DNA of 64,000 nt from the IMG/VR virus record IMGVR_UViG_3300037067_019759. One strand, 5' to 3'. The notes below the pieces were generated by a model. It did no database searches. It was not told the DNA's origin and saw nothing but the letters and a program-made list of their open reading frames with translations. Source of the DNA: a virus. Taxonomy: Duplodnaviria > Heunggongvirae > Uroviricota > Caudoviricetes. Numbering within the stretch: the stretch's first letter is position 1; the number at the start of each line of letters is the position of its first letter. The position numbers were made by a program, and so were the translations under genes. Shown here piece after piece: positions 787 through 17,683 of the stretch.

Positions 787-1320
787 ATGTCAACATTGAA
801 AACTCTTGATGCCAATTGTCACATAGGTGGTGGATCCCACCTTCCCATTTTAATCAAACTTTTAAATATAACCGAAGGTCCCGTTCTTGAACTTGGTACT
901 GGTTTATTTTCCACGCCCTTTTTGCATTGGGCGTGTTTTGATAAAAAGAGAAAATTAGTATCGTATGAAAACAAAAAGAAATTTTTTGATTTTTGGATTT
1001 ATAATGATGCAAGGGAATTAAATAACGATTACAGTTATCATCAAGTAAAATTTGTGGAAAATAATAATTGGGATGCGATAGATATTTCTGAACATTGGGG
1101 GATAGTATTTATTGACCATAATCCTGGACCAAGGCGGAGGGAGGAGATGAAGCGGGTAGCAAATAATGCTGATTATGTGGTAATACACGATACTGATGAC
1201 AAAAACGATTGGTATTATAAATATTCGGAACATTTTCCTTTATTTAAATATAGATGGGATTCAAAGATTTATCCGCGGACTACAATACTATCTAATTTTT
1301 TTTCGTTAGATAAATTATAA
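787..1320 (+). CDS. SAM-dependent methyltransferase-like protein, family A. One of three paralogs with 5153 and 7132.
   Basis: Conserved HLPILIKL...GPVLELGTGxFSTP glycine-rich motif resembles methyltransferase motif I. Paralogous to ORFs at 5144 and 7060. Confidence 0.4.
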   Translation: MSTLKTLDANCHIGGGSHLPILIKLLNITEGPVLELGTGLFSTPFLHWACFDKKRKLVSYENKKKFFDFWIYNDARELNNDYSYHQVKFVENNNWDAIDISEHWGIVFIDHNPGPRRREEMKRVANNADYVVIHDTDDKNDWYYKYSEHFPLFKYRWDSKIYPRTTILSNFFSLDKL

Positions 1321-1325
1321 AAATT

Positions 1326-2102
1326 ATGCCAAAGATACAATTCGAGAGTAGTGTTCGTTGCAATGCTCGCTGTACTTTCTGCCCTCGTTACGATATTACC
1401 CGTCCGAAGGGAGAAATGTCCGACGAGTTATTTCATAAAATTATACAAGAAAGTAAAGTATTTAGAAGTCCTGAGATCGTACCTTTTCTAAACGGAGAAC
1501 CATTCGTTTTTTCAAGAATATGGGAATGGTTAGACTACATGAGAGATAATAACTGCCGGGTCTATATTTTTACTAATGCAGAATTGATGGATGTGGATAA
1601 AATAATTCAGTACAAAAATATTCGTTATGTTTGTTGCAGTATTAATGCGGCGACTGCGGAAACCCATAAAAAAGTAATGCGTGGTCCTGATTTTAAAACA
1701 GTAGTAAATAAAGTGAGAGATTTGATAGAAAAAGCATCTTTTAGAGTTTATGTTTCAATGGTAATAACAAGTGACAACCAGCATGAAGTAGAAATGTTTA
1801 AGAAACAATGGGGTAAAAATGCGATATTTGGCGAATTTAAGAATTGGGGAGGAGCCAGACATGATAAATTAGAAAAGACGGGTAAAAGAAAACCATGTCC
1901 CTCATTATTAAATTCCATTACTATATTATGGGATGGAAGAGTGGTACCATGTTGTTTGGATTTTGACGGCAAATTAATATTAGGAGATGTTAATAAGCAG
2001 ACTTTAACGGAAATTTGGCAACAAACTGGATGGTTGAGAAGAAAGCATAAAAATTTAATTTTTGACTATCCACCATGTCGTTACTGTAATCAAAATATTT
2101 AA
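1326..2102 (+). CDS. Radical SAM enzyme with C-terminal SPASM-like Cys cluster
   Basis: CNARCTFCP is a CxxxCxxC motif near the N-terminus. C-terminal CPSLL...VPCCLDFDG...PPCRYCNQ is Cys-rich, SPASM/twitch-like. Confidence 0.65.
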   Translation: MPKIQFESSVRCNARCTFCPRYDITRPKGEMSDELFHKIIQESKVFRSPEIVPFLNGEPFVFSRIWEWLDYMRDNNCRVYIFTNAELMDVDKIIQYKNIRYVCCSINAATAETHKKVMRGPDFKTVVNKVRDLIEKASFRVYVSMVITSDNQHEVEMFKKQWGKNAIFGEFKNWGGARHDKLEKTGKRKPCPSLLNSITILWDGRVVPCCLDFDGKLILGDVNKQTLTEIWQQTGWLRRKHKNLIFDYPPCRYCNQNI

Positions 2103-2111
2103 ATATCTTTT

Positions 2112-3131
2112 ATGGATAAACAAATTATTTTTGGACAAAATAAACTTTTAAATCATCCCGAAAAAGTAACTGAATGGTTGCAGGGAGGAGATAGAACAAT
2201 AGTGACGGTTGAATTGGACTTAACCAATAGATGCAATAATAGATGCCCAAAATGTGTTGGTTGGGCGGGTGGAAAGACTAAAGATGAATTGACTATTGAT
2301 GAAGTTAAAAATTATTTACAAAATATTATGTCTTTGGAAGCGAAAGGGGTAATTTTTACGGGTGGAGGAGAACCATTATTACATCCAAATTTTACGGAAG
2401 CATTAAAATATGCGAAAGAGTTAAATTTGCATGTCGGTCTTATCACTAATGGTCTAGCGCTTGCGGAACATAATACAACGTCAATTTTAGAGAATTGCGA
2501 TTGGGTTAGGATTAGTATTGATGCAGGTAATGTTGAGATGTATAAAAAAACGCATGGTATGGATGAAGTCTCATGGTGGGTAGTTATTAATAATATTAAA
2601 AGGTTGATTTTTAATAAAAAAGAATTGAATTCAAAATGCATTATTGGTCTAGGGTATTTAACTGGAAAGGATACTGCGGAAGAAAAAGAAATGGAAGATT
2701 TTGCAAAATTAGCATTAGAATTAGAAGTAGACTATGCTCAATTTAGGCCTTTTCATAATGATTTTACGGATATAAAAGATAAAATTAATATTCTTCAAAA
2801 AAAGTATGGCAATATAATAACCGCTTCTTGGCAAAAATATAACAGATTTAATGATAAAAATAAAAGACCATATAAAAAATGTTATGGTTCGAATTTCGCC
2901 GCAACAATTGGAGCCAATGGAGATATGTTTGTTTGTTGTCACATGAGAGGGATAGATAAATATAAATTAGGTTCCTTGAGGGAGAGTACGATGAAAGAAA
3001 TATGGAAAAAAAGACAAGAAATTTTTGATAAAATTGATTTTAAAGATTGTCCATTTTTTTGCCGTTGCGATGAATTTAATAGATTATTAGATGAAATTAA
3101 AAAACTTAAACAACATGTTGAATTTTTATGA
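2112..3131 (+). CDS. Radical SAM enzyme with C-terminal SPASM-like Cys cluster
   Basis: CNNRCPKCVGW is a CxxxCxxC motif. GGGEPLL is a glycine-rich SAM motif. C-terminal FVCCHMRG...CPFFCRCDEF. Confidence 0.6.
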   Translation: MDKQIIFGQNKLLNHPEKVTEWLQGGDRTIVTVELDLTNRCNNRCPKCVGWAGGKTKDELTIDEVKNYLQNIMSLEAKGVIFTGGGEPLLHPNFTEALKYAKELNLHVGLITNGLALAEHNTTSILENCDWVRISIDAGNVEMYKKTHGMDEVSWWVVINNIKRLIFNKKELNSKCIIGLGYLTGKDTAEEKEMEDFAKLALELEVDYAQFRPFHNDFTDIKDKINILQKKYGNIITASWQKYNRFNDKNKRPYKKCYGSNFAATIGANGDMFVCCHMRGIDKYKLGSLRESTMKEIWKKRQEIFDKIDFKDCPFFCRCDEFNRLLDEIKKLKQHVEFL

Positions 3132-3892
3132 AAAATTTGCTCACACACATCAGCCCTAGCAAGGAATTTTGTAATGATGAACATAAAATGGCTGTAAAAA
3201 TACAGATAGACAATAGTCTTGAGTTAGGCTGGAAAAAGGAAGATATTTCATTAATTACTAATTTTGACTATGAATATAATGGGGTTAAATCTTCAGTAAT
3301 TGGTGGTGAAAATTATTGTTCAATTACCAAAAATCGTTTATGGACAGCGACTAAAATTTATGTTATAGATTATCTTTTTAAAAATAATTTAATTGAAAAT
3401 GATTTATATTGGTATCATGATTTTGATTGTTGGCAATTAAATCCGCTTACGGATATAGAAACGGATATGGTTGGAGTTGATATGGGTTTGACTAATTACG
3501 GCAGAATGCCGAGATTATGTTCTGCCAGTATGTTTTTTAGGAATACAGCAGGCGATATTTTTAGCAAAATAAAAGAAGAAGTTAATAGAGTTCAAAGAGA
3601 TGAAGAAACTGTAATTGCCAGTTTAATAAATTCGGACGTTGATTTGAAAAAGAGAGTTAAATTGTTAAACACAACTTATGCTTTTCAAAAATGGAATATG
3701 CATCATTCTTATCATCGGTCTGACAAGCCAATAAAGGCGGTTCATTTTCACTTAACACCAGATAAATATGATTTTTTTGTTAACGGCAATAATCGGACAA
3801 ATTTAAAAATTATACCTGGGAGATTAATTGATATCTTTAACTATAATGGATTCTATGGAGAGCAAAGTAGCGGTAATAATTCCAACGTTTGA
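3128..3892 (+). CDS. Hypothetical DxD-motif protein, possibly a glycosyltransferase. Paralog of 6426..7127.
   Basis: N-terminal 60 aa near-identical to ORF 6426 (MKNLL...IQIDN..GWKKEDI.L.TNFDYEYNG.KS). WYHDFDCWQ/WFHDFDAHQ is a DxD-like motif. Confidence 0.35.
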   Translation: MKNLLTHISPSKEFCNDEHKMAVKIQIDNSLELGWKKEDISLITNFDYEYNGVKSSVIGGENYCSITKNRLWTATKIYVIDYLFKNNLIENDLYWYHDFDCWQLNPLTDIETDMVGVDMGLTNYGRMPRLCSASMFFRNTAGDIFSKIKEEVNRVQRDEETVIASLINSDVDLKKRVKLLNTTYAFQKWNMHHSYHRSDKPIKAVHFHLTPDKYDFFVNGNNRTNLKIIPGRLIDIFNYNGFYGEQSSGNNSNV

Positions 3893-4508
3893 TTTGTTGG
3901 ATATATTAAAAGATTTGATAAAAAACGTAATTGACTATACTACGGGAGATTACCAAATTTATGTTGTTGAAAATGGGCAAAAAGAGGCAACGATTGATTG
4001 GCTCAAAACTAAAGATAATATTAAATCTATTTTAAATAGTGATAATGCCGGGACTTCCCGTTCATGGAATATGGGGATAAAGGAGGGTTTGAAAGATGGT
4101 TGCACTCATTTCGCACTTTTAAGTGATGATATCCAACTTTCTCCTGGTTGGTGGGACGCTTGTAAAAAAGAATTTGATAATGATTCGCATTTAGTATCAA
4201 TAGAAGCGGGATTAAAAAATATTATTTTTTCTGGGTGGTTTTTTATTATTGATAAAGAAGCATTAGATAAAGTGGGTTATTTAGACGAACAATTTTGGCC
4301 GTTTTATTTTGAAGATTTGGATTATTCTCAGAGATTCGCACAAAGTGGATTAAAATATTCAATGGCGGATACTAAAGTTGTGCATCTCGGCAGTTTGACT
4401 AATCGTGGTTATTTTGAAAAAAAATTTCCTGATTTTTTTATGAAAGTATATCGTAGAAATAAACGTAAATTTAGAAAAAAATACCCTAATTTAAAATTTA
4501 AGATGTAA
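3846..4508 (+). CDS. Family-2 glycosyltransferase (GT-A fold). Start moved to the first ATG; the listed ORF begins at TTG 3828.
   Basis: VAVIIPTFD start motif. YVVENGQ. LLSDDIQLSPGWWD (DD). EDLDYSQR. All are typical of GT2. Confidence 0.55.
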   Translation: MDSMESKVAVIIPTFDLLDILKDLIKNVIDYTTGDYQIYVVENGQKEATIDWLKTKDNIKSILNSDNAGTSRSWNMGIKEGLKDGCTHFALLSDDIQLSPGWWDACKKEFDNDSHLVSIEAGLKNIIFSGWFFIIDKEALDKVGYLDEQFWPFYFEDLDYSQRFAQSGLKYSMADTKVVHLGSLTNRGYFEKKFPDFFMKVYRRNKRKFRKKYPNLKFKM

Positions 4509-4509
4509 T

Positions 4510-5151
4510 ATGGCAAACGATAAAAGCATCATATATTACTCAGCTTCGTCAGAAAATTTTGAGTTTGAACAAAAAATTATAGATGACTTAAAGCAAAAAG
4601 CTGGAGATATCCAAATAATCAGCGTGACACGAAAACCCCTAGACTTAGGAACTAATATTTGTGTAGGCGAAATTCCAATTTCTTATACGAGCGAATGGAT
4701 GCAACTTTTAATCGGGTTAAAAGCAGCTAAAACTAAATTTTGTATTGCAGCAGAATCTGATTGTATCTATCCCGAAGAGTATTTTACTTTTACTCCGCCA
4801 GAAGAAAGAATGATGTATAATTATAATAATATCTGGATGGTGTGGAAACGGCATAACGGTTTTTGGCAAAAAACTGGTTATTGCGAGGGAGCTCAAATGT
4901 GCGGGCGAGAGTATTGGATTGAAAGACTTGCGCCGCTTTTGCCTGAAAAATGGGAACCGTATACTAGAGAACAAGAGAATGAATTGGTTAAAAAAATTTT
5001 TTCTGAAAGAAAAGAATTTACCGGTAATCCAGTTATTTCTTTTAAAACTGGAAATGGTGTGAGTAAAAGAACGACATTTAAAAATAAGAAAGTTCTTAAT
5101 ATTGATTATTGGGGAGATATTGCGCCTTTAAAGAAGAAATATTTTGGTTAA
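4510..5151 (+). CDS. Hypothetical protein, paralog of 8231..8956
   Basis: Shared IYY...I.SV.RKPLDLG.NI motif with ORF 8231. An ExD acidic motif could be GT-like. Function unknown. Confidence 0.35.
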   Translation: MANDKSIIYYSASSENFEFEQKIIDDLKQKAGDIQIISVTRKPLDLGTNICVGEIPISYTSEWMQLLIGLKAAKTKFCIAAESDCIYPEEYFTFTPPEERMMYNYNNIWMVWKRHNGFWQKTGYCEGAQMCGREYWIERLAPLLPEKWEPYTREQENELVKKIFSERKEFTGNPVISFKTGNGVSKRTTFKNKKVLNIDYWGDIAPLKKKYFG

Positions 5152-5152
5152 T

Positions 5153-5665
5153 ATGGAAACATTTACATCTAAAGATTTTAAAGTAAGAGCAGGTTCTCAT
5201 TTACCATTATTAATTAAGTTGGTTTTTATGACCGATGGTCCAATATTAGAGTTAGGAACAGGATTTTATTCTACCCCGGTACTTCACTGGTTGTGTGCTG
5301 AAAATAAAAGAAAATTAATATCATATGAATCTAGTGAACGATATTTCGAAGTAGCAAGGCGATATATTTCTGATTGGCATGAAGTTAATTTTGTTACTGA
5401 TTGGAGTAAAATTGATACCTCTAGCAATCATTGGGGTGTTGTGTTCGTTGATCATTATCCTGCTCAACAACGTAGATTGGAAATAGAACGGGTAGCAGAT
5501 AATGCTGAATTTGTGATAGCGCATGATTCTGAATTAAAGCATGATAAAGACTATCAGTATTCTAAGATTGCTCCGTTATTTAAATATCGGTATGATTATA
5601 ATAAATTTTATCCGAATACTGTGGTATTTAGTAATTTTTTTTCGATAGATAAACTAAAAATATAA
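5153..5665 (+). CDS. SAM-methyltransferase-like protein, family A paralog. The listed ORF starts at TTG 5144; ATG is at 5153.
   Basis: GSHLPLLIKL...GPILELGTGFYSTPVLHW is nearly identical in motif to ORFs 787 and 7132. Confidence 0.4.
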   Translation: METFTSKDFKVRAGSHLPLLIKLVFMTDGPILELGTGFYSTPVLHWLCAENKRKLISYESSERYFEVARRYISDWHEVNFVTDWSKIDTSSNHWGVVFVDHYPAQQRRLEIERVADNAEFVIAHDSELKHDKDYQYSKIAPLFKYRYDYNKFYPNTVVFSNFFSIDKLKI

Positions 5666-5669
5666 ATTT

Positions 5670-6281
5670 ATGACTATTAAAGAGGGTTTAAAATTAAAAG
5701 GATCTCCTGCTCATATTCCAGATTGTAGCAGAACTGATTTGCCTCAATTTTTTGTTGATAGAGGATATAAAGTAGGAGCGGAAATAGGAATATATAAAGG
5801 AGGTTTTACTAAACGATTTTGTGAAGCGGGATTAAAAATGTTCGCGATTGATCCTTGGGTAGCTTATTACGGGGATCGTAACCAAGAAAGAGTAGATTCT
5901 ATTTATGAAGAGGCTCGTCAAACGTTATCTAAATATGATAATTGCACTATTATTAAAAAATCATCAATGGAAGCAGTAAAAGAATTTGCCAATGAATCGC
6001 TCGATTTTGTATATATAGATTCCGATCATAGATTTAAGCAAACGGCTGAAGATATTGTTGATTGGAGTAAAAAGGTCAGGCAGGGAGGAATTGTCGCTGG
6101 ACATGATTATTTTACTTCACTGCCATGGGCACGTAAGTTTCGTTGCCAAGTTGGAGTTGTCGTCGATGCTTACGCAAAAGCATTCGGTTATGATAATTTT
6201 TATACGCTTGGTGATCTTGATTATAAAACTGAACCGGAGTGGATGCAATGGATGTTAACTTGGTTTTTTATTCGTAAATAA
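5670..6281 (+). CDS. Class I SAM-dependent methyltransferase (TylF/CmcI/Methyltransf_24-like O-methyltransferase), family B
   Basis: VGAEIGIYKGGFT (motif I). FAIDPW. VYIDSDHRF...GGIVAGHDY. Paralog at 7608. Confidence 0.55.
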   Translation: MTIKEGLKLKGSPAHIPDCSRTDLPQFFVDRGYKVGAEIGIYKGGFTKRFCEAGLKMFAIDPWVAYYGDRNQERVDSIYEEARQTLSKYDNCTIIKKSSMEAVKEFANESLDFVYIDSDHRFKQTAEDIVDWSKKVRQGGIVAGHDYFTSLPWARKFRCQVGVVVDAYAKAFGYDNFYTLGDLDYKTEPEWMQWMLTWFFIRK

Positions 6282-6425
6282 ATAATAATATGCCATCAGG
6301 AGTTTATACAAGAACAGAACTACATAAAGAAATTTTACGTAAAAGCGTTAATAAAGGTTTTTTTCAAAAAGGACATAAAATTAATGTAGGAAGAAAATTT
6401 AATATACAGATTTTAAGATAAAAGC

Positions 6426-7131: not shown

Positions 7132-7611
7132 ATGAATTTAAAATTTGGCAAAGAGACGGCTACCCATTTACCAATTTTAATTAAATTAGTAAATATGACA
7201 AATGGTCCAATTCTTGAATTGGGTACGGGCATATTTTCGACTCCTTATTTGCATTGGGCATGTTTTGAAAATAAACGAAAACTCGTGTCCTATGAAGAAA
7301 AACAAAGTTATTTTGAAATGGTTAAACAATATGTTTGTGATTACCATTTTATTTTTACGGATTTAAATAAAATTGAAGAGGAGCATTGGAGTATTGTATT
7401 AGTTGATCAATATCCTTCAGGTAGAAAAGAATCAATAAAAAAATTGGTAAATTCGGCTGATTATATTGTTCTTCATGACTCTAATGATGAGTATGATGAA
7501 ACTTATAAGTATTCGGAAATTTATCCGTTATTCAAGTATAGATATGATTTTGACAAAGTATTGCCAAGAACAACAGTAGTTTCTAATTTTAAGGATTTAA
7601 CAAATTTATGA
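7132..7611 (+). CDS. SAM-methyltransferase-like protein, family A paralog. The listed ORF 7060 overlaps the upstream gene; the internal ATG at 7132 was chosen.
   Basis: MNLKFGKETATHLPILIKLVNMTNGPILELGTGIFSTPYLHWACFENKRKLVSYE parallels ORF 787. Confidence 0.4.
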   Translation: MNLKFGKETATHLPILIKLVNMTNGPILELGTGIFSTPYLHWACFENKRKLVSYEEKQSYFEMVKQYVCDYHFIFTDLNKIEEEHWSIVLVDQYPSGRKESIKKLVNSADYIVLHDSNDEYDETYKYSEIYPLFKYRYDFDKVLPRTTVVSNFKDLTNL

Positions 7612-8222
7612 AATTTTTAGACGCAATTAAACAAAAAGGAAATCCATTTATAATTCCCGATTGTGGAAGGGATAATTTACCCGGATTTTTTGTTGAAATG
7701 GGATATAAGGTAGGGGTAGAAATAGGAGTATTGAGAGGTAAATTTAGTAAAAAATTAAGTCAGGCGGGATTAAAATTATACGCCATTGATCCCTGGATTG
7801 GTTTTCATGGACAAGGACGCACTCAAAATGAACAAATTGTTCAAGATGGATATTATGAACAAACTAAAAAGATTTTAACTCCTTATAAAAATTGTACTAT
7901 CATTAGGAAAACATCAATGGAGGCATTGGTTAATTTTAAAGATAAAAGTTTGGACTTTGTTTTTATCGACGGGGATCATGATTTTAGGCATGCGGCAGAA
8001 GATATTTTTGAATGGAGCAAGAAAGTTAGGGCGGGTGGAGCGGTGGCAGGGCATGATTATTTTGATACAGCTCCATTTGCTCGTAATATGGTATGTAATG
8101 TAAAATCAGTATTGGATGCCTATGTTAAGGCGTTTGATATTACGGATTGGTATTTATATAGACCGGATGGGGCGACCGATGCGGATGATAAATGTTACTC
8201 GTGGATGTTTATTCGTAAATAA
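7608..8222 (+). CDS. Class I SAM-dependent methyltransferase, family B paralog
   Basis: VGVEIGVLRGKFS. AIDPW. VFIDGDHDF. AGGAVAGHDY. Same order and motifs as 5670. Confidence 0.55.
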   Translation: MKFLDAIKQKGNPFIIPDCGRDNLPGFFVEMGYKVGVEIGVLRGKFSKKLSQAGLKLYAIDPWIGFHGQGRTQNEQIVQDGYYEQTKKILTPYKNCTIIRKTSMEALVNFKDKSLDFVFIDGDHDFRHAAEDIFEWSKKVRAGGAVAGHDYFDTAPFARNMVCNVKSVLDAYVKAFDITDWYLYRPDGATDADDKCYSWMFIRK

Positions 8223-8230: not shown

Positions 8231-8956
8231 ATGGAGAAAAAAGTAGGAGCGATATATTATACTGACTTTCACGCGGATTCATTGATTATGAATATATGTT
8301 TAGAACAACTTAAAAAAAGTTTTAACGGAGAAATTGTTTCCGTTTCATTAAAACGACCATTGGATTTGGGAAAAAATATTATTTTAAATGAAGTTAGAAG
8401 TTATCCTACGATGTCTTTACAAATTTTAACTGCGCTAGAAGCATTAACTGCAGATTATGTTTATTTTTTAGAGCATGACGTTTTATATGCATCCGAACAT
8501 TTTTCTTTCATTCCAGATAGAGATGATATTTATTATTATAATGTTAATAATTATCGCTGGGCTTTTGGTGCTGATACTGCGATAACTTACGATGGCTTAA
8601 CTTCGCTTTCAGGTATGTGTTGTAATAAAGAATTGGCGATTAGACATTATAAATACAGATTAAAAATAATAAAAGAACAAGGGTTAGATAAAATGAGAAG
8701 CAGGGAACCCCGCTGGGGTCGAAAATTTGGTTATGAACCAGGGACGAAATCAAAAAGAAATGGTGGTATAACTGATGAAGGACACATAAAACGAAAGTCT
8801 ATTGTTCCTAATATAGATATTAGACATAGATATACTTTTAGTGCACCTAAAATTACGTTAGAATCATTTAAACATAAACCTACGGGATGGATAGAAAAAC
8901 CTATAGAAGAAATAGAAGGTTGGAATTTGCGTAGTTTATTCAATCTTAAAAAATAA
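8231..8956 (+). CDS. Hypothetical protein, paralog of 4510
   Basis: AIYYTDF...IVSVSLKRPLDLGKNI matches ORF 4510. LEHDVLYASEHF acidic motif. Confidence 0.35.
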   Translation: MEKKVGAIYYTDFHADSLIMNICLEQLKKSFNGEIVSVSLKRPLDLGKNIILNEVRSYPTMSLQILTALEALTADYVYFLEHDVLYASEHFSFIPDRDDIYYYNVNNYRWAFGADTAITYDGLTSLSGMCCNKELAIRHYKYRLKIIKEQGLDKMRSREPRWGRKFGYEPGTKSKRNGGITDEGHIKRKSIVPNIDIRHRYTFSAPKITLESFKHKPTGWIEKPIEEIEGWNLRSLFNLKK

Positions 8957-9749: not shown

Positions 9750-10745
9750 ATGGATAAAAGAAAGTATTTATTATCGATCGTCATTCCAACAAGGTCAGAA
9801 ATGTTTTTAGCTCGCACTATTGAAGATTTAATACAAAATACTTCCGATCAAACCGAAATAATCGCCGTATTGGATGGAAAATGGAGTGATCCGCCGATTG
9901 CTGACCATCCACGAGTTAACTTAATTTATTTACCAGAAAGTGTCGGTCAACGTGCCGCTACAAATTTGGGTGTAAAACTTTCTAGAACAAAATATGTGGC
10001 CAAAACAGATGCGCACTGTGCTTTCGACAAAGATTTTGATTTAAAAATGTTAGAGGCATTTAAAAGGACAGGAGATAACGTCACGATGGTGCCAGTTATG
10101 AAAAATCTGCATGCCTTTAGTTGGAATTGCCGAGATTGTAACTGGAAGTTGTATCAAGGCCCTACACCCAATAAATGTGGAAGATGCGGAGGAGCTAACC
10201 TCAGAAGGAAGATGATTTGGCAACCAAGGGCACATGTTAACAGCACTAGTTACTGTTTCGATGCCGAACCGCATTTCCAGTATTTTGAAGATTATAAACA
10301 TAGACCCCAATATATAAAAGATAAAGCGGAAACGGGTTTAACGGAAACTATGTCATTACAGGGTAGTTTTTTCATGTGTACAAGAGAAAAATATTGGGAA
10401 CTTAAATTATGCGATGAAGAATTTGGTTCGTGGGGGAATCAGGGGATTGAGGTAGCTGCGAAAACTTGGCTTTCAGGAGGTCGTGTTTTGTGTAATAGCA
10501 AATGTTGGTATGCCCACATGTTTAGAACTCAGGGAGGCGATTTTAGTTTTCCCTATCCTCAGTCTGGTCGTGAAGTTGCTAGATGTAAAGCAAAAGTTAG
10601 GGATATGTTTTGGAAAAATAAATATCCTAATCAGATATATCCGCTTTCATGGTTAGTGGAAAAATTCTGGCCGATACCTGGGTGGAGTGAACAAAATCTA
10701 CAAGACTTAAAAATTAGTGGAAGTAATTTTGTAAATTTAAAATAA
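9750..10745 (+). CDS. Family-2 glycosyltransferase with inserted CxxC zinc ribbon
   Basis: LLSIVIPTRSE. AVLDGKW. DAH. CRDCNW...CGRCGG insert. Confidence 0.55.
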   Translation: MDKRKYLLSIVIPTRSEMFLARTIEDLIQNTSDQTEIIAVLDGKWSDPPIADHPRVNLIYLPESVGQRAATNLGVKLSRTKYVAKTDAHCAFDKDFDLKMLEAFKRTGDNVTMVPVMKNLHAFSWNCRDCNWKLYQGPTPNKCGRCGGANLRRKMIWQPRAHVNSTSYCFDAEPHFQYFEDYKHRPQYIKDKAETGLTETMSLQGSFFMCTREKYWELKLCDEEFGSWGNQGIEVAAKTWLSGGRVLCNSKCWYAHMFRTQGGDFSFPYPQSGREVARCKAKVRDMFWKNKYPNQIYPLSWLVEKFWPIPGWSEQNLQDLKISGSNFVNLK

Positions 10746-10855: not shown

Positions 10856-11143
10856 ATGGACAAACAAACAGTGATGTCTATGATGAAGAACACCGTAGAT
10901 CAAAATCTTTATTTTACATCGAGGGGACAAGATGTCGGCGGATCCTGCTGGCATTATTGGCAGAATTGGTATTATCCTGAAGTTATAAGAGAATCTTATC
11001 CAGTGTATATTCAAGAAAAAGCGATAGATACGGGAAAAAAGGCTTTTGAAATTATAAAAGGGATGGTTGACAAAAATTTTGTAAAACTTAATACAGTTAA
11101 GGATTTTATTGAAATAATGGATTTTTTTATAAAGAATTTATAA
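10856..11143 (+). CDS. Hypothetical protein
   Basis: ORF only. No recognisable motif. Confidence 0.3.
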   Translation: MDKQTVMSMMKNTVDQNLYFTSRGQDVGGSCWHYWQNWYYPEVIRESYPVYIQEKAIDTGKKAFEIIKGMVDKNFVKLNTVKDFIEIMDFFIKNL

Positions 11144-11456: not shown

Positions 11457-11522
11457 ATAAATAGCCCCTAGGAAATAGTAATTTTAGATAAATAATCCTA
11501 TTTGGGGTTATTTATCTTTTTT
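11457..11522 (+). terminator. Putative rho-independent terminator after gene 11187-11420
   Basis: AATAAATAGCCCC...GGGGTTATTTAT stem followed by CTTTTTT. Confidence 0.35.
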
Positions 11523-11530: not shown

Positions 11531-11547
11531 GTTTATTAACAAAAAAA

Positions 11548-14500
11548 ATGTTTAATTTTAATGAAAAATTTTTTGAAAAATATCAAAAACAATTATTATT
11601 TATTGCAAATTGTTGGTATTTGCGATGGTTTTTGGGTTTGCATCGGTTGTCTAAAAAGATAAAAAAAGAAACAAAAATAATTTCAAAAATAACACCAAAT
11701 TCAATCTACGTAAAGATAAATGATGTAAAATATAAAAAATATTGTTTTGTTAATAATCGTTTTGCGGAATCATTATTTTATAATTTTTATCCTTTTTATT
11801 ATTTTCGATCATTGAAAAAAAATTCTTTTTGGAGATTAAGTCCGATAAAATTAGCATATCAAGTCTTTTTTTATATTATTGGAATCAAATTTTTTAATAT
11901 ACCTTTTATTATTTTTGGAACAACGGTAACTGATTTTTATTCTGGTTCTGGTGATGGGGAAGTGGCCAATTACAATGCCTCGTGGGATACTTGCCAATCG
12001 GCGACGGACGGAGTAGATGCCTTACCAGCCGGAGCGAGTAGAATAGCTGGAATTTATAAGCAAGGTGGTGGTGATTACAGCATTGAAAGATTATTTACTC
12101 CTTTTCTCACTTCCGATTTGCCTGATGATGCAAATATTACAATAGTAACTTTGACTTTATTTACCGTGAATGAAGTTATAGATAATGATAATGATGGCAA
12201 TGATTTTCTGACGGTAGTGCAAACCTCGCAAGCGGACAATACTACCTTGGGGACTGCTGATTTTGACAAGTGCGGCGATGCCATTACTAATCCAACGGAG
12301 GGAGTGGATAGTGGAAACAGAATTGATATTTCCGGTATTTCCACTTATTCATCAATTACTTTCACGCTTAATTCCACTGGCAGAGGCTGGGTTAATAAAA
12401 CGGGATATACTCTATTGGGAGTACGTGAAGGACACGATGTTTTAGACGATCCACCAACATTATCAAATGGACAAGGAAATTATGTTAGGTTTTATATGTC
12501 GGAACAGACAGGATCGGATACTGATCCTTGTTTAGAAATTACTTATGTTAGTTCCAGTACATCTCCTAGTATTTCTCCTTCCGCTAGTCCTTCGACGTCT
12601 ATCTCTCCTAGCATAAGCCCCAGTATTTCCCCTTCTGTTAGTCCATCTACATCTATTTCTCCAAGTATAAGCCATAGTGTTAGCCTTTCAATATCTCCCT
12701 CTAAAAGTCCTAGCTTTTCTCCCTCTATTAGCCCTTCTTTATCTCCTTCTAAAAGTCCCAGTATCAGTCCCTCTGTTAGTCCTTCCGTCTCTATCTCTCC
12801 TTCTAAAAGCCCTAGTGTTAGCCCTTCTTTATCTCCTTCTAAAAGTCCCAGTATCAGTCCCTCTGTTAGTCCTTCCGTCTCTATCTCTCCTTCTAAAAGC
12901 CCTAGTGTTAGCCCTTCTTTATCTCCTTCTAAAAGTCCCAGTATCAGTCCCTCTGTTAGTCCTTCCGTCTCTATCTCTCCTTCTAAAAGCCCTAGTGTTA
13001 GCTCTTCAATGTCTCCGTCCGTTAGTCCTTCTGCATCACCTAGCACTAGTATATCACCGAGTATTTCTCCTTCAATTTCTCTTTCATTTTCACCCAGCAT
13101 CAGTCCTTCTGTTAGTCCTTCTGTTTCTATAAGTCCCTCTATTTCTCCTAGTTTTTCTTTTAGTATTAGTCCCTCTATCAGTCCGAGTACTTCACCATCA
13201 GCGAGTATATCTCCCTCTATCAGCCCGAGCTTAAGTCCTTCATTAAGCTCTAGTTTTTCTTTTTCATTGAGTCCATCTTTTTCGCCATCTATTAGTCCCT
13301 CTACTTCTCCTAGCGTTAGCATCAGTCCTTCAAAATCTCCAAGTATAAGTCCAAGTAAATCTCCTTCTTTTTCTCCTAGTTTCTCTCCTTCTGCCAGTCC
13401 TTCAATTTCACCATCTGTGTCTCCTAGTACATCTTTGTCACCTTCTTTGTCTCCCTCTATTTCTCCCAGTAATTCACCATCTTTTAGCCCTTCCGTTTCT
13501 CCATCTGTTTCAATATCGCCATCCTTATCACCAAGTTTTTCTTCTTCTAAAAGTCCTAGTATTTCTCCTTCTATCAGTCCCTCTGTTTCTCCTTCAATTA
13601 TTTCTAGTTTTAGTCCATCGTTGAGTCCTTCTGTTAGTCCTTCCATATCTCCCTCTTTAAGTCCCTCTCTTAGTCCTTCTTTTTCTCCTAGTTTAAGCCC
13701 TAGTATCAGTCCTTCGGAATCTCCTAGTACTAGTATCAGTCCTTCCAAATCTCCATCTATTAGTCCTTCTTTTTCTCCTAGTTTAAGTCCCAGTATTAGT
13801 CCCTCCGAATCTCCTAGCACCAGCATCAGCCCTTCTAAATCTCCTTCTTTAAGTCCCAGCATCAGCTTTTCTTTTTCTCCCAGTTTTAGTCCAAGTGTTA
13901 GCTTTTCTAAATCTCCTTCTTTAAGTCCTAGTATCAGTCCTTCCGCATCTCCTAGTGTTAGTATTAGCCCCTCAATATCTCCTTCTTTAAGCCCCAGTAT
14001 CAGTCCTTCAATTTCTTCCTCCTTAAGTTCTAGCGTCAGTTCTTCTTTTTCTCCTTCTCTGAGCCCTAGTATTAGTCCTTCTGTTTCTCCTAGCGTTAGT
14101 ATCAGTCCTTCTTTGTCTCCCTCTTTAAGTCCTTCTCTTAGTCCTTCCGTTTCTCCTAGCGTTAGTATCAGTCCTTCTTTGTCTCCCAGTCTGTCTCCGT
14201 CTTTAAGTCCCTCAATTTCTCCTTCTTTTAGTCCTTCTTTTTCTCTTTCTTTAAGCCCAAGTATTAGTTTATCTTTTTCTCCCTCTATTAGTCCCTCCAT
14301 ATCCCCCTCTCCAAGTCCCGGCTGGTTAGATTATACGAGAGGCGATTACGCTGATTTACCTAACGATGATAACTATTTAGAAACTAATTATTCCGCACAG
14401 GATTATTTAGATGTAGCGGAAAAAGATAATATTAGAGTGGATCAGACAGCAACAGTAGAATATGCGATTCATGAATTTAAGGAATATGCTGGCGTAGTAA

Positions 14501-14727
14501 ATTCTTGTACTATAGAATGGTATGGCAGAACTAACTGTGATGCTTCTTTAAGTGCGGTTTATTTACAAATTTATAATTATATTACTCCTGGTTGGGAAAC
14601 GATTGATTCTAATAACACGGTGGCAGAAGATGTTAATTTTTCTTTAACTGCCTCTAAAGCAAATTTAACTAATTATAAAAATGGAAGTGGAGTGGCTACT
14701 TTTAGAGTATATCAATTAGCATTATAA
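11548..14727 (+). CDS. Virion fibre-like protein. N-terminal globular domain, then roughly 590 aa of (x)SPS tandem repeat, then a C-terminal domain.
   Basis: ATG at 11548. The core is hundreds of ISPS/VSPS/KSPS/LSPS units encoded by near-perfect 90-bp DNA tandem repeats (12710-12990). Flanking domains are low-complexity-free. Confidence 0.55.
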   Translation: MFNFNEKFFEKYQKQLLFIANCWYLRWFLGLHRLSKKIKKETKIISKITPNSIYVKINDVKYKKYCFVNNRFAESLFYNFYPFYYFRSLKKNSFWRLSPIKLAYQVFFYIIGIKFFNIPFIIFGTTVTDFYSGSGDGEVANYNASWDTCQSATDGVDALPAGASRIAGIYKQGGGDYSIERLFTPFLTSDLPDDANITIVTLTLFTVNEVIDNDNDGNDFLTVVQTSQADNTTLGTADFDKCGDAITNPTEGVDSGNRIDISGISTYSSITFTLNSTGRGWVNKTGYTLLGVREGHDVLDDPPTLSNGQGNYVRFYMSEQTGSDTDPCLEITYVSSSTSPSISPSASPSTSISPSISPSISPSVSPSTSISPSISHSVSLSISPSKSPSFSPSISPSLSPSKSPSISPSVSPSVSISPSKSPSVSPSLSPSKSPSISPSVSPSVSISPSKSPSVSPSLSPSKSPSISPSVSPSVSISPSKSPSVSSSMSPSVSPSASPSTSISPSISPSISLSFSPSISPSVSPSVSISPSISPSFSFSISPSISPSTSPSASISPSISPSLSPSLSSSFSFSLSPSFSPSISPSTSPSVSISPSKSPSISPSKSPSFSPSFSPSASPSISPSVSPSTSLSPSLSPSISPSNSPSFSPSVSPSVSISPSLSPSFSSSKSPSISPSISPSVSPSIISSFSPSLSPSVSPSISPSLSPSLSPSFSPSLSPSISPSESPSTSISPSKSPSISPSFSPSLSPSISPSESPSTSISPSKSPSLSPSISFSFSPSFSPSVSFSKSPSLSPSISPSASPSVSISPSISPSLSPSISPSISSSLSSSVSSSFSPSLSPSISPSVSPSVSISPSLSPSLSPSLSPSVSPSVSISPSLSPSLSPSLSPSISPSFSPSFSLSLSPSISLSFSPSISPSISPSPSPGWLDYTRGDYADLPNDDNYLETNYSAQDYLDVAEKDNIRVDQTATVEYAIHEFKEYAGVVNSCTIEWYGRTNCDASLSAVYLQIYNYITPGWETIDSNNTVAEDVNFSLTASKANLTNYKNGSGVATFRVYQLAL
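12356..12454 (+). repeat. 99-bp segment of fibre gene 11548 with an exact inverted copy at 36009-36107
   Basis: The reverse complement of 36009-36107 equals 12356-12454 base for base (TTACTTTCACGCTTAATTCC...GTTTTAGACGATCCAC). Confidence 0.7.
12543..14310 (+). repeat. Coding tandem repeat (TCN-CCN-AGN periodic, SPS) including three near-identical 90-bp units at about 12710-12990
   Basis: Visible DNA periodicity. Blocks such as tctaaaagtcccagtatcagtccctctgttagtccttccgtctctatctctcct recur exactly. Confidence 0.7.
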
Positions 14728-14734
14728 GAAATAA

Positions 14735-17683
14735 ATGAATAAATTACTTGCCAATTTAATACGAATTATAACGGAAATACTACATTGGATTTTGTCGTTT
14801 TTTGTTGATGAACAAGTATTATCAGAGTGGAAATTTTTACATCTTTGTTGGTGGTTTCGTAAACACGGGTTAAAAATTCCGAAGTATTTTATTGGGGCGG
14901 ATACTGGGGCGTTAAGTCCAGGAACAATGGCAGATGACGCAACAGTCGGCACTGTGGCGTGGACGAATCCTGATAATGCGAAGGTGAGTGATAATGTGTA
15001 TGCGAGTGCCGTATTATCGGGAGATTCTCATTATCTCAAAGCAACTAATTTTGGATTTTCTATTCCTAGCGGAGCAACTATAAACGGAGTTGTTGTAGAG
15101 ATACAAAAAAAAGGTTCATATCCAGTAGGAGACTTTCTTGTTGATAAATATGTGAAAATAGTTAAGGCAGATGGAACTATTGGAACAACAAATAAGGCAG
15201 ATACAACAACAAATTGGCCTACTAGCGAAGCATATAAAACCTATGGAGCGAATAATGATTTATGGGGAGAAACTTGGACGGCAGAAAATATAAATGATGT
15301 AGATTTTGGAGTAGTTATTTCTACACAATATACAGGAGTAAATGCTTACATTGACCACATCCGTATCACAGTTTATTACACGGAAGCAATTTCAACTTCG
15401 CCATCTATTAGTCCTTCTATTTCACCAAGTATATCATTTTCCACTTCATTAAGTCCTAGCATTTCTCCTTCTGTTAGTTCTTCTTTTTCTCCCTCTGAAA
15501 GTTCTAGTATTTCACCTTCAGTATCTCCGCCACCTCAAACTAATTTACAGACAGATTATTGGAAAGTTATTTTTGGAGAAATTCCAAGTTTTAGTCCTTC
15601 TGTTAGTCCTAGTATTAGCCCTAGTTTTTCTCTTTCAATTTCTCCTTCCGTTAGTCCTTCCGCTAGTCCAAGTACTAGTATTAGTCCTTCTATTAGTCCT
15701 AGTGTTAGTCCTAGTTTTTCTCCTTCAATTTCTTTTTCCATTAGTCCTTCTGTTAGTCCTAGCGTTAGTATTAGTCCTTCCATTTCTCCTAGCATCAGTC
15801 CATCTATAAGTCCTAGTGTTAGTTTTAGTTTTTCTCCTTCCATCAGTCCTTCTGTTAGTCCTAGCGTTAGTATCAGCCCTTCTCTTTCTCCTAGCATTAG
15901 TCCGTCTGCTAGTCCATCCATTTCTATTAGTCCTAGTTTTTCACCAAGTATTAGTCCAAGTAAAAGTCCTAGCATTTCTTCAAGTATTTCTCCTTCCATC
16001 AGCCCTAGCGCTAGTCCTTCTGCTAGCGTTAGTCCTTCCATATCTCCATCTATTAGTCTGAGTATTTCACCCTCTATATCTCCTAGCTTTAGTCCTTCCG
16101 TTTCTCCTAGCATTAGTATCAGTCCTTCATTCAGTCCTTCATTAAGTCCAAGTGTTAGTCCTTCACTAAGTCCAAGCGTTAGCTCTTCAATATCATCTTC
16201 TATTAGTCCTTCCGTTTCTCCTAGCAACAGTATCAGTCCTTCGTTAAGTCCTTCGTTAAGTCCAAGTGTTAGTCCCTCAATATCGCTTTCCGTCAGTCCT
16301 TCCGAATCTCCTAGTGTTAGTATCAGTCCTTCTATTTCTCCGAGCATTAGTCCTTCCGTTAGTCCTTCAATATCGTCAAGTTTTTCACCCTCTGTTTCAC
16401 TGAGTGTTAGTATCAGTCCTTCTTTTTCTCCCTCTGTCAGTCCTAGCTTTTCTCCCTCTGTCAGTCCTTCCGTGTCTATCTCTCCAAGCATAAGTCCTAG
16501 CGTTAGTCCTTCAATGTCTCCCTCTAAAAGTCCTAGCTTTTCTCCCTCTGTCAGTCCTTCTTTTTCTTTCTCTATTAGTCCATCTACATCTATTTCTCCA
16601 AGTATAAGCCCCAGTGTTAGCCCTTCAATATCTCCCTCTAAAAGTCCTAGCTTTTCTCCCTCCGTCAGTCCTTCCGCGTCTATCTCTCCAAGCATAAGCC
16701 CCAGCATTAGTCCCTCTGTTTCTCCTTCAATTATTTCTAGTCTTAGTCCATCGTTGAGTCCTTCTGTTAGTCCTTCCATATCTTTATCCCAGTCTCCGTC
16801 TATATCGATAAGCCCATCTTTATCGCCAAGTTTTAGTGTTTCGATTAGTTCATCTATTTCTCCGTCTATTAGCCCCTCAATATCTCCTTCTTTAAGCCCC
16901 AGTATTAGTCTCTCAATTTCTCCCTCCTTAAGCCCCAGTATCAGTCCTTCTTTTTCTCCTTCTTTTTCTCCTTCTGTCAGTCCTAGCTTTTCTCCCTCCG
17001 TCAGTCCTTCAATTTCTATAAGTCCATCATTATCACCAAGCATTAGTCCTTCCATTAGTTTTTCTTTTTCATTATCCCTTAGTCCTTCTGTCAGTCCTAG
17101 CTTTTCTCCTTCCGCCAGTCCTTCAATTTCTATAAGTCCATCAATATCACCAAGCATTAGTCCTTCTGTTAGTCCGTCTGTTTCACCGAGCGTTTCTCCC
17201 TCAATTTCTTTTAGTTTAAGTCCGAGTTTCAGTCCGTCCTTCTCTCCTAGCTTTAGTCCTTCCATTAGTTTTTCAATATCTCCTAGTGTTTCACCAAGTT
17301 TTTCATCGAGTTTTTCACCATCTTTTAGTCCATCTGTTTCACCGAGCTTTTCACCATCTTTTAGTCTATCTGTTTCACCTAGTATTAGTCCTTCTTTTAG
17401 TACTTCCATCTCTCCAAGTTTAAGCCCGAGTATAAGTCCTTCCATTAGTCCGTCGTTTTCGCCAAGTGTATCTCCCTCTATTAGTCCTTCAGTTAGTCCT
17501 TCGCCTAGTTTTGAAATCAACGATTGGGTTCCAATTGGTGAAATTGAAGTTGAATATATAAATGGATGTATAGAAACAGAAACTATGACGGGTGAAATAG
17601 ATACTGAATATATGCGCGGATGTATAGAAACAGAAACGATAATAGGCGAAATAGAGACTGAAGATATAAGAGGAACGAGATAA
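14735..17683 (+). CDS. Virion fibre-like protein with a roughly 700-aa SPS-repeat core and a C-terminal GEIETE/GCIETET repeat tail
   Basis: Same repeat class as 11548. The N-terminal domain differs. C-terminal 3x repeat EYINGCIETETM.GEI.TE. Confidence 0.55.
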   Translation: MNKLLANLIRIITEILHWILSFFVDEQVLSEWKFLHLCWWFRKHGLKIPKYFIGADTGALSPGTMADDATVGTVAWTNPDNAKVSDNVYASAVLSGDSHYLKATNFGFSIPSGATINGVVVEIQKKGSYPVGDFLVDKYVKIVKADGTIGTTNKADTTTNWPTSEAYKTYGANNDLWGETWTAENINDVDFGVVISTQYTGVNAYIDHIRITVYYTEAISTSPSISPSISPSISFSTSLSPSISPSVSSSFSPSESSSISPSVSPPPQTNLQTDYWKVIFGEIPSFSPSVSPSISPSFSLSISPSVSPSASPSTSISPSISPSVSPSFSPSISFSISPSVSPSVSISPSISPSISPSISPSVSFSFSPSISPSVSPSVSISPSLSPSISPSASPSISISPSFSPSISPSKSPSISSSISPSISPSASPSASVSPSISPSISLSISPSISPSFSPSVSPSISISPSFSPSLSPSVSPSLSPSVSSSISSSISPSVSPSNSISPSLSPSLSPSVSPSISLSVSPSESPSVSISPSISPSISPSVSPSISSSFSPSVSLSVSISPSFSPSVSPSFSPSVSPSVSISPSISPSVSPSMSPSKSPSFSPSVSPSFSFSISPSTSISPSISPSVSPSISPSKSPSFSPSVSPSASISPSISPSISPSVSPSIISSLSPSLSPSVSPSISLSQSPSISISPSLSPSFSVSISSSISPSISPSISPSLSPSISLSISPSLSPSISPSFSPSFSPSVSPSFSPSVSPSISISPSLSPSISPSISFSFSLSLSPSVSPSFSPSASPSISISPSISPSISPSVSPSVSPSVSPSISFSLSPSFSPSFSPSFSPSISFSISPSVSPSFSSSFSPSFSPSVSPSFSPSFSLSVSPSISPSFSTSISPSLSPSISPSISPSFSPSVSPSISPSVSPSPSFEINDWVPIGEIEVEYINGCIETETMTGEIDTEYMRGCIETETIIGEIETEDIRGTR
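15400..17510 (+). repeat. Coding SPS tandem repeat region of gene 14735
   Basis: Same repeat class. About 2.1 kb. Confidence 0.7.

Follow-up and report, generated by a model that had tools for sequence, protein, structure and literature searches.

A phage enzyme cassette with a GT27-like transferase beside giant Ser-Pro-Ser array genes, shared with Patescibacteria chromosomes: a candidate mucin-like glycosylation module

Mucin-type O-glycosylation of eukaryotic proteins is initiated by the polypeptide N-acetylgalactosaminyltransferases (ppGalNAc-Ts) of CAZy glycosyltransferase (GT) family GT27, and a proline at both -1 and +3 of a serine is a context favoured by these enzymes. In Gram-positive bacteria, the very long Ser-rich repeats of serine-rich-repeat adhesins are O-glycosylated in the cytoplasm by the products of a neighbouring gene cluster. 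Among viruses, virus-borne soluble enzymes serve the capsid glycans of chlorovirus PBCV-1 (A64R) and the fibrils of mimivirus, and mycobacteriophage virions are reportedly O-glycosylated too, with glycans carried by the extended C-termini of capsid and tail-tube subunits. Here we describe a locus in 64,000 nucleotides of DNA from a tailed phage (IMG/VR virus record IMGVR_UViG_3300037067_019759; this whole stretch is called the window below). In this locus, a cassette of thirteen enzymes, at 787-10745 on the + strand, lies upstream of three genes whose proteins carry arrays of xSPS units (SPS, Ser-Pro-Ser; x, a variable residue). The last enzyme of the cassette, GT2b, has the ppGalNAc-Ts as its nearest relatives of solved structure, and its gene recurs next to SPS-array genes in other phage contigs and in the chromosomes of Patescibacteria, which are ultrasmall bacteria. 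Based on these data, we lean towards the view that the cassette glycosylates the SPS arrays of virion fibres or decorations.

The locus resembles each of these systems in part. Like the initiators of mucin-type O-glycosylation, GT2b possesses a GT-A core, a DxH motif and a Gal/GalNAc-T motif with a third His ligand, and its presumed acceptor is likewise a long Ser/Pro tandem-repeat domain. However, it has neither lectin domain, membrane anchor nor Golgi context, it carries a CxxC..CxxC insertion, it is encoded by phages and by bacteria of the candidate phyla radiation (CPR, Patescibacteria), and its acceptor would be Ser-only xSPS instead of Thr-rich mucin repeats. As for the serine-rich-repeat adhesins, a dedicated adjacent gene cluster would O-glycosylate very long Ser-rich repeats in the cytoplasm, and both clusters contain GT8-like and GT2-like extension enzymes. 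In contrast to the adhesin clusters, no GT4 enzyme GtfA/GtfB (Glycos_transf_1), no SecA2/SecY2 and no LPXTG anchor was seen in the scanned cassette or in the cellular flanks described below, the initiator is GT27-like, the repeat is xSPS and not S-[AVT]-S-[ETM], and methyltransferases and radical S-adenosylmethionine (radical-SAM) enzymes are present. The PBCV-1 and mimivirus systems also rely on virus-borne soluble GT-A enzymes and methyltransferases, but they belong to giant viruses of eukaryotes, their acceptors have no xSPS, and they include neither a GT27-like initiator nor a radical-SAM enzyme. In mycobacteriophages, phage-encoded glycosyltransferases also lie near structural genes; these are few, whereas the present locus has ten or more enzymes, kilobase-long presumed acceptor arrays, a different lineage and a probable CPR host. 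Thus, the module combines features of mucin-type, serine-rich-repeat and virus-encoded systems and is a member of none, as it lacks the GT27 lectin domain, the GtfAB and accessory-Sec genes, and a capsid C-terminal acceptor. A search of the literature for phage GT27 enzymes, Ser-Pro-Ser repeats and Patescibacteria glycoproteins returned no description of such a system.

GT2b and its pairing with xSPS arrays

GT2b (9750..10745, + strand) is a GT27-like glycosyltransferase of 331 amino acids (aa) that shows a DxH motif, a Gal/GalNAc-T motif and a CxxC..CxxC insertion, and whose only Pfam match is PF00535. When this single sequence was compared with all PDB sequences, the best matches were polypeptide GalNAc-transferases. 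A profile of 38 family members gave the same picture, since ppGalNAc-Ts took all of the top 13 places among the PDB matches (E 1.7e-15 to 1e-11). Matches to generic bacterial GT2 enzymes were confined to the N-terminal half of the profile, and for the Gal/GalNAc-T half the ppGalNAc-Ts were the sole PDB matches. In these alignments, the DxH motif (TDAHC) falls on LDSHCE/LDAHCE of the ppGalNAc-Ts, and WGNQGIEVAAKTWLSGGRVL...AHMFR falls on the Gal/GalNAc-T motif WGGEN..E.S.R.W.CGG ... H.FR, which provides the third metal-ligand His. The residues concerned (D87, H89 and H256) do not vary among the 100 family members compared (37 orthologues and 63 paralogues). The CxxC..CxxC insertion (residues 127-146) is zinc-ribbon-like and lies between the two GT-A halves. 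Its cysteines C127, C130, C143 and C146 are kept in 36-37 of the 37 orthologues, and it occurs neither in the GT2b paralogues nor in ppGalNAc-Ts; it may be an acceptor-binding element. The Pfam scan found no ricin-type lectin domain in GT2b, and no type II membrane anchor was present (maximum KD19 0.91). We therefore call GT2b ppGalNAc-T-core-like and do not file it as a member of GT27. We propose that GT2b is the initiating protein O-glycosyltransferase.

The presumed acceptors are encoded downstream on the same strand. SPS1 (11548..14727) is a giant protein with an array of 579 residues and 120 SPS (~12553-14292), followed by a conserved C-terminal globular domain of ~135 aa. SPS2 (14735..17683) has an N-terminal globular domain and an array of 707 residues and 137 SPS (~15389-17509). 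SPS3 (19741..21846), a post-adaptor protein that is nozzle-like by position, bears a shorter xSPS insertion of 97 residues and 21 SPS (~19975-20265). These lengths, obtained by translation, agree with the original prediction made for this stretch, which had announced three proteins with xSPS cores of 90-700 residues. At the variable position, I, V, L, F and K predominate. Serine is written in both codon families (TCN:AGY = 167:129 and 187:165 in the two long arrays), indicating amino-acid-level selection on the + frame rather than a DNA microsatellite. Within the arrays, the DNA is only 65-85% self-similar, save for one recent duplication, at 12728-13007 in the SPS1 array, made of 3.1 copies of a 90-nt unit that are 99% identical. 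Such identity points to a recent expansion, so that the length of the array is probably evolving fast. The minus strand is also open over the two long arrays (585 and 654 codons), but it would encode an irregular peptide.

Outside the arrays, the C-terminal domain of SPS1 (135 aa) is 38-60% identical to the domains that follow arrays of widely differing length in six other loci. At the other end of SPS1, the first ~125 codons (375 nt) have a GC content of 20% and no homologues. The true start is thus uncertain, maybe near 11920, and the leader may be non-coding. The N-terminal region of SPS2 is conserved in part in the SPS proteins of loci L032 and L007, and its C-terminus (17564-17667) consists of short acidic 18-aa repeats, GEIExEYxxGCIETET. 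The C-terminal non-repeat part of SPS3 has homologues among post-adaptor proteins: those of three loci (L034, L035, L042) have no SPS, and that of L236 contains it. The existence of array-less homologues suggests that the SPS3 array is an insertion into a conserved protein of the structural module.

All three SPS genes belong to the morphogenesis module, are co-oriented and adjoin the gene for a head-to-tail adaptor of the SU10 type (17738..19123, + strand; Pfam SU10_adaptor, E=1e-15, 59 bits for a cut-off of 27), which marks the structural module. Also, in the related locus L004, the cassette starts ~0.7 kb after genes of the GP7 capsid and Bbp16 Pfam families. From this gene position, the SPS proteins are presumed to be virion fibres or decorations. 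Public gene calls give a very incomplete view of them. The SPS1 C-terminal domain appears as fragments of 87-237 aa in all 57 database relatives, including a 96-aa C-terminal fragment (P0241) on the window contig itself, and in L004 (15650-18142) the SPS array is annotated as minus-strand open reading frames (ORFs). That gene callers miss or shorten the SPS genes is maybe the reason why this class is undescribed and almost absent from protein databases.

The association between cassette and arrays was examined in both directions. For the forward test, an IMG/VR scan with the alignment of family C (one of the cassette glycosyltransferase families), together with look-ups of database homologues, yielded 44 distinct loci, of which 36 were long (at least 12 kb). 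With an SPS-array locus defined by an ORF containing at least 9 SPS, arrays were found in 34 of the 44 loci and in 30 of the 36 long ones. A GT2b orthologue was followed by a same-strand SPS ORF in 21 loci, with a gap below 1 kb in 19 of them, and many loci had a second SPS gene upstream of the cassette. The core of the long loci comprises GT2b (about 2.3 copies, in general an orthologue plus a paralogue), the transferase families C and D and the methyltransferase family B, with family A (58%), rSAM1 (33%) and GT2a (17%) as accessory members. Related loci add genes for nucleotide-sugar enzymes: GFO_IDH_MocA (oxidoreductase) and Hexapep (acetyltransferase) genes, epimerase/RmlD-like genes and a uridine diphosphate (UDP)-GlcNAc 2-epimerase. 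In locus L009 (ERZ27249422 k141_38087, 1-16315), the GT2b orthologue directly precedes a gene for an SU10-type adaptor and the available DNA shows no SPS array; L009 and the similar locus L041 are possible exceptions in which the acceptor would be another one.

The reverse tests started from the repeats. A degenerate DNA pattern for seven units of [ST]P[ST]x returned mostly TP linkers, which served as a control for specificity. Near TP, TPTx, (SP)n or RP arrays in about 70 viral loci, genes for GT2b, C, D or B were absent, and a locus with (SPSA/SPSP)n (L075) gave a single family-A match. The three genuine xSPS loci returned by this pattern all had GT2b and D. A second, Ser-specific pattern was applied with flanks of only a few kb, a long array being defined by at least 19 SPS; cassette genes were within these short flanks in 10 of 19 long-array loci. 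By comparison, short perfect SPSx microsatellites, many of them in metagenome-assembled genomes (MAGs) of giant viruses, were near cassette genes in only two of about 55 cases. Arrays of the TPTx, (TP)n, (SP)n and RP types (L046-L125, L166-L242, IMG/VR) are common in viral contigs and were never beside the core cassette enzymes. TP-type arrays and short SPSx microsatellites are phenomena distinct from the long degenerate xSPS arrays.

The same module is present in cellular genomes. A scan with the GT2b alignment of one genome per GTDB species gave 147 relatives with 52-68% identity. Most of them are in MAGs that bear the names of Patescibacteria lineages (Woesebacteria, Daviesbacteria, Levybacteria, WWE3, Saccharibacteria, Paceibacterota, Zambryskibacteria, Yanofskybacteria, Microgenomates), and the chromosomes that carry some of them are complete or nearly so (0.74-0.94 Mb). 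A scan of GTDB genomes for family C with two peptide patterns gave no match; this is an artefact of the patterns, as C homologues are present in the loci found with GT2b. An SPS ORF accompanies the same cassette in 46 of 80 cellular loci (L283-L362), usually directly after the GT2b orthologue, and the largest cellular SPS protein reaches 2372 aa with 378 SPS. Examples are L309 (CP066693.1, 208632-225618) and L311 (OZ246401.1, 278426-295418). On large contigs, the cellular flanks contain genes for a CapD-like dehydratase, UDP-GlcNAc 2-epimerase, carbamoyltransferase, RmlD, DegT, TylF, ComM and TatC, as well as a response regulator, IS200, and Ig-like, dockerin and peptidoglycan-binding proteins; the scanned flanks showed no phage structural family. 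Adaptor- and nozzle-like genes occur in a single locus of the cellular collection, L322, which is probably a mis-binned phage contig.

Signal peptides were not detectable in the cellular SPS proteins. A tail motif GFN..T..LE...G..W..LP was found in 7 of 14 cellular SPS tails and in 0 of 43 phage SPS tails, which suggests that arrays and enzymes are common to phages and cells while the terminal domains differ. Also, the GT2b orthologues from viral and genome collections interleave, as expected from repeated exchange, from mis-binning, or from both. Judged by these gene neighbourhoods, the module is common to phages and CPR chromosomes. The original prediction had suggested a phage-encoded glyco-modification system; the phage does encode the module, but the module is not phage-specific.

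The other enzymes of the cassette

On the + strand, a homing-endonuclease gene of the HNH type (45-782) is followed by A1, rSAM1, rSAM2, C1, GT2a, D1, A2, B1, C2, A3, B2, D2, a second HNH gene (8981-9748) and GT2b, and then by two small ORFs, a terminator-like hairpin, SPS1, SPS2, the adaptor gene and SPS3. The interval 787-10745 contains six GT-A glycosyltransferases (GT2a, GT2b, two of family C and the two predicted ones of family D), two Methyltransf_24 enzymes, three members of family A and two radical-SAM enzymes. This gene content and the presence of the arrays are confirmed. The interval of the original prediction stood as to gene content; it omitted the two HNH genes and ended at 17683, before SPS3. 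Among the expected enzymes, the two GT2 glycosyltransferases were recovered (PF00535 in 3828-4508 and 9750-10745), and so were the two paralogue pairs 3128/6426 and 4510/8231, which correspond to families C and D.

The GT-A glycosyltransferase C1 (3128..3892, + strand) has a fold of the GT8-like (retaining) type and shows the DxD motif H97-D98-F-D100, and C2 (6426..7127, + strand) is a second enzyme of this kind with 39% identity to C1. D1 (4510..5151, + strand) is predicted to have a GT2-like GT-A fold and carries an E-x-D motif; the same prediction applies to its paralogue D2 (8231..8956, + strand), with an invariant E81-x-D83. Neither family matched Pfam, NCBIfam or PHROGs, single-sequence comparison with PDB sequences gave chance-level matches only, and none of 120 family-C homologues among the matches listed had a Pfam GT domain. 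These assignments come from AlphaFold2 models computed on family alignments (hundreds of metagenomic homologues for each family), with pLDDT values of 90.6 (C) and 92.5 (D). According to the models, C1 and C2 adopt a GT-A fold nearest to GT8, GT77 and GT24 enzymes, with a DxD, and D1 and D2 are predicted to be GT2-like GT-A glycosyltransferases. Both families, which the original prediction had left without assignment, thus appear to be soluble GT-A transferases. Structural matches of family C include A64R of PBCV-1 and R699 and R655 of mimivirus, and GlyE and GalT1 were among the structural or sequence matches of cassette enzymes. GT2a (3828..4508, + strand; likely start ATG at 3846 or 3855) is a generic family-2 glycosyltransferase (Pfam Glycos_transf_2, 1e-11) that matched the glycosyltransferase and galactosyl transferase families of PHROG.

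B1 (5670..6281, + strand) and B2 (7608..8222, + strand) are SAM-dependent methyltransferases of the Methyltransf_24 family (Pfam PF13578, 56.4 and 61.4 bits, respectively, for a cut-off of 26.3) that are 50% identical. The best PDB match of the family-B profile was 6g7d, a methyltransferase entry (5.5e-6). The prediction of two TylF/CmcI-like enzymes therefore stood for the broad kind, that is methyltransferases, while the TylF/CmcI Pfam families themselves were not matched. B1 is a probable sugar O-methyltransferase.

Family A comprises A1 (787..1320, + strand, 177 aa), A2 (5144..5665, + strand; 52% identical to A1 and 50% to A3) and A3 (7132..7611, + strand), whose ORF opens at 7060 and whose likely start is the ATG at 7132. 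Neither single sequences nor the profile gave any match beyond chance level in Pfam, NCBIfam, PHROG or PDB. Family members share an invariant motif such as LELGTG, and the motif layout resembles that of class-I methyltransferases. Alignment of families A and B by hhalign, with small and large alignments, was in register and weak (E=0.06-0.14). Hence, of the claim of three methyltransferase-like paralogues, the paralogy was borne out and the methyltransferase part was not. The family is large, with about 2000 representative clusters at 50% identity in metagenomes; a search for viral loci with the single A2 sequence found none. Some relatives of family A are fused to GT2 domains (P0354, P0446), and one protein joins family C to Methyltransf_24 (P0013). 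Such fusions are consistent with these families acting in one pathway.

Both radical-SAM enzymes contain the Radical_SAM and SPASM Pfam domains, as the original prediction had stated, with rSAM1 being rather of the Twitch/BtrN type. rSAM1 (1326..2102, + strand, 258 aa; Radical_SAM 1e-15, SPASM 4e-14) has invariant cysteines C12/C16/C19 and C191/C209-210/C251/C254 in 14 orthologues. As the latter set suffices for only one auxiliary Fe-S cluster, the enzyme is Twitch/BtrN-like. Its sole PDB match was BtrN (3e-8, ~45 residues in the auxiliary-cluster region), a radical-SAM 2-deoxy-scyllo-inosamine dehydrogenase with a Twitch domain that acts on the hydroxyl of an aminocyclitol. The two enzymes are alike in size (258 versus ~250 aa) and in their single auxiliary-cluster Cys set; they differ in that the match spans only these ~45 residues and that rSAM1 is found in about a third of the cassettes. 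By this likeness, rSAM1 may oxidise a sugar. rSAM2 (2112..3131, + strand, 339 aa) matched Radical_SAM at 3e-19 and SPASM at 5e-8. No NCBIfam family reached its cut-off for either protein. rSAM1 shows 54-75% identity among orthologues and occurs in 12 of the 36 long loci, and rSAM2, nearly unique to the window, in one of the 36. Given this sparse occurrence, both are best seen as accessory tailoring enzymes outside the core. A role akin to that of viperin or of a peptide maturase, with thioether chemistry on the arrays, was rejected, as no NCBIfam model came near its cut-off and the arrays contain no Cys. Conversion of Ser to formylglycine by an enzyme like the anaerobic sulfatase maturases was set aside as a very distant prospect, because the xSPS unit does not fit C/S-x-P-x-R.

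The repeated families of the cassette are related far beyond chance, as judged by blastp: A1/A2/A3 (48-52% identity, E 1e-55 to 1e-60), B1/B2 (E 4e-71), C1/C2 (E 1e-46) and D1/D2 (29% identity, E 5e-13). The gene order C-(GT2a)-D-A-B / C-A-B-D suggests that the cassette arose partly by segmental duplication. No membrane-spanning or hydrophobic segment was detected in any of the thirteen enzymes, and family scans of the cassette ORFs showed no flippase, polymerase, lipid-carrier enzyme or undecaprenyl-phosphate transferase.

Two homing-endonuclease genes accompany the cassette. The one just upstream (45..782, + strand; NUMOD3 E=7e-25 and HNH_2) is a mobile insertion outside the pathway; the other (8981..9748, + strand; NUMOD3 4e-13, HNH 6e-5), with 31% identity to the first, is inserted within the cassette. 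Between GT2b and SPS1 lie a 95-aa ORF (10856..11143, + strand), with no family match and found in none of 36 related loci, and a 77-aa ORF (11187-11420). The latter precedes a terminator-like hairpin with a 14-bp stem and a T-run (11486..11517, + strand), whose position between the cassette and SPS1 suggests that the SPS genes are transcribed apart from the enzyme cassette.

Glycosylation of the arrays and competing explanations

We hypothesize that the enzymes, being soluble and cytoplasmic, act late in infection. GT2b would put the first sugar, probably an N-acetylhexosamine from a host UDP-sugar, onto array serines; the second Ser of each xSPS unit, flanked by Pro at -1 and +3, would offer the context favoured by ppGalNAc-Ts. 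The C, D and GT2a enzymes would lengthen the glycan, the B enzymes, and possibly those of family A, would O-methylate it, and the BtrN-like rSAM1 would oxidise or otherwise tailor a sugar hydroxyl without O2. The product would be stiff, protease-resistant, mucin-like 'bottle-brush' segments in two giant pre-adaptor proteins and in the post-adaptor nozzle-like protein, and these glycosylated segments would form surface fibres or decorations of the virion. We infer the arrays as acceptor, the identity of the sugar, the order of the steps, the location in the virion and the role, which may be that of a host-like coat, adhesion or protection.

Computational support for the proposal that cassette and SPS fibres form a glyco-modification system comes from the affinity of GT2b for ppGalNAc-Ts, the specific synteny and the position within the structural module. 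In addition, the homology and structure searches did not place the enzymes in DNA-modification or cell-wall pathways, GT2b being nearest to ppGalNAc-Ts and C and D being soluble GT-A enzymes by their models. Several points weigh against this proposal. Synteny by itself is no proof of an enzyme-substrate relation, and all the support is computational. GT2b is only ~25-30% identical to GT27 enzymes, over parts of the catalytic domain, and it is devoid of the lectin domain and membrane anchor of the canonical ones, so that the donor and the acceptor are not readable from homology. Nine of the 19 long-array loci show no cassette genes within the short flanks and, conversely, two loci (L009 and L041) carry the cassette while their available DNA contains no SPS array. 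For SPS1 and SPS2, no match to a known structural family was obtained, and no signal peptide is detectable in the cellular SPS proteins.

In the main rival reading, the glycan would be transferred elsewhere, either to another virion protein, such as one of the capsid or tail as in mycobacteriophages, or, during infection, to an envelope polysaccharide or a surface protein of the host, with the arrays serving as bare flexible or polyproline-II spacers. Phage glycosyltransferases do have other roles, among them seroconversion and DNA modification or hypermodification (PMC12619734). L009 and L041, as well as the location of the CPR module among general glycan-biosynthesis genes, would also fit such a destination. 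We nevertheless regard it as unlikely. The pair formed by a GT2b orthologue and an SPS gene is kept in phage contigs as well as CPR chromosomes, at 45-72% identity, the core cassette enzymes were never near other Ser/Thr/Pro repeats, and the nearest solved relatives of GT2b act on polypeptides; this synteny specificity and this polypeptide-transferase affinity are what disfavour it. The soluble nature of the enzymes and the failure of the family scans to find a flippase, a polymerase or an undecaprenyl-phosphate transferase point in the same direction. Still less probable, in our opinion, is that the SPS proteins are glycosylated but do not belong to the virion, being host-like surface or secreted glycoproteins used, for example, for superinfection exclusion or to manipulate the episymbiotic host cell. 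The cellular nature of the CPR module and the lack of a known structural family for SPS1 and SPS2 agree with this idea, as does a hydrophobic stretch near residue 106 of SPS1, although it lies in the doubtful 20%-GC leader. On the phage, however, the SPS genes are inside the head-tail module, co-oriented and next to the adaptor gene, the SPS3 array is in a post-adaptor protein conserved among relatives, and the C-terminal domains of phage SPS proteins are unlike the cellular ones, as seen with the GFN..LE..G..W motif.

Modification of the phage DNA itself is very improbable. Glycosylation and methylation of its bases (base hypermodification) would protect against restriction: phage glycosyltransferases that hypermodify DNA are known, PHROG names the nearest family of B 'DNA methyltransferase', and radical-SAM enzymes participate in some nucleoside pathways. 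Yet among the about 50 window ORFs scanned with Pfam there was no deoxynucleoside monophosphate hydroxymethylase, thymidylate-synthase-like enzyme or DNA-base kinase/transferase. Moreover, the cassette belongs to the late structural and not to the replication module, the module also exists in cellular chromosomes beside giant SPS genes, and the motifs of GT2b are GT27-like. We give hardly any credit to the last explanation, according to which the SPS 'genes' are non-coding or antisense repeat DNA and their + strand ORFs are accidents of a stop-free repeat. Public gene callers skip these genes, with just the 96-aa fragment annotated on the window contig, and the minus strand is also open; but the use of both TCN and AGY codons conserves the + strand peptide while scrambling that of the minus frame, the arrays are in frame with non-repeat N- and C-terminal domains, of which the C-terminal one keeps its identity between loci, and the genes are tightly spaced with co-oriented neighbours. 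Glycosylation of the SPS arrays of virion fibres or decorations remains the reading that we prefer.

Phage setting, probable host and significance

By its gene content, the window is clearly phage. Besides the SU10-type adaptor, it contains genes for an M23 peptidase, a Prim-Pol/DnaB primase-helicase and SbcCD-like proteins, and one of its proteins matches a tail-fibre family of PHROG. No tRNA was found in the window, whose DNA is low in GC (about 30%). Comparison with 50,697 deposited phage records gave no match, whether with positions 1-12000 by Megablast or with a 1230-aa protein by tblastn, and no cultured relative emerged; proteins of the window are also on record from a 97,961-bp JGI metagenome contig. 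This phage probably infects a member of the Patescibacteria, as suggested by the shared genes, the GC content and the habitat names in the record titles.

Homing endonucleases are abundant, with at least 8 HNH genes (NUMOD3/HNH_3) in the 64 kb. In addition to the two near the cassette, they are located at 30351-31112, 36303-36917, 37945-38721, 39209-39802, 42341-43090 and 48580-49083, and an endonuclease-VII-like gene is at 21938-22765. The Pfam scan of the window ORFs also revealed an ordinary N6/N4 DNA methylase (60192-61010). A 279-aa ORF at 59352-60191 corresponds to the N-terminal part of a class-II alanyl-tRNA synthetase (tRNA-synt_2c, E=1e-20). In the minus-strand early region, we observed genes for a SpoU-type RNA methylase, an HD-domain protein and an SPFH/Band-7 protein (50848-51282, 52849-53250 and 45110-45910).

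A broader reading, which we advance only tentatively, is that mucin-type O-glycosylation has a hitherto unrecognised prokaryotic and viral branch, in which 'bacterial and phage mucins' would be made from kilobase-long xSPS arrays by a GT27-like transferase bearing a zinc ribbon, together with GT8-like and GT2-like extenders, sugar methyltransferases and a BtrN-like radical-SAM enzyme that tailors independently of O2. Under this broader reading, and with the same reserve, Patescibacteria might modify giant proteins of their own, and their phages might coat fibres with a host-like glycan, either for camouflage or for sticking at the interface between episymbiont and host.

These data also reveal an annotation gap, as proteins of one to two thousand residues or more are reduced to fragments of ~100 aa in public gene calls. 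If the proposed glycosylation is true, a large uncultivated phage clade and its probable Patescibacteria hosts would make mucin-like glycoproteins by means of a relative of the initiator of animal mucins, which would bear on the origin of GT27 enzymes. The module would then provide a marker linking phage contigs to their hosts, and a molecular handle on the little-known surface biology of CPR bacteria and their viruses.

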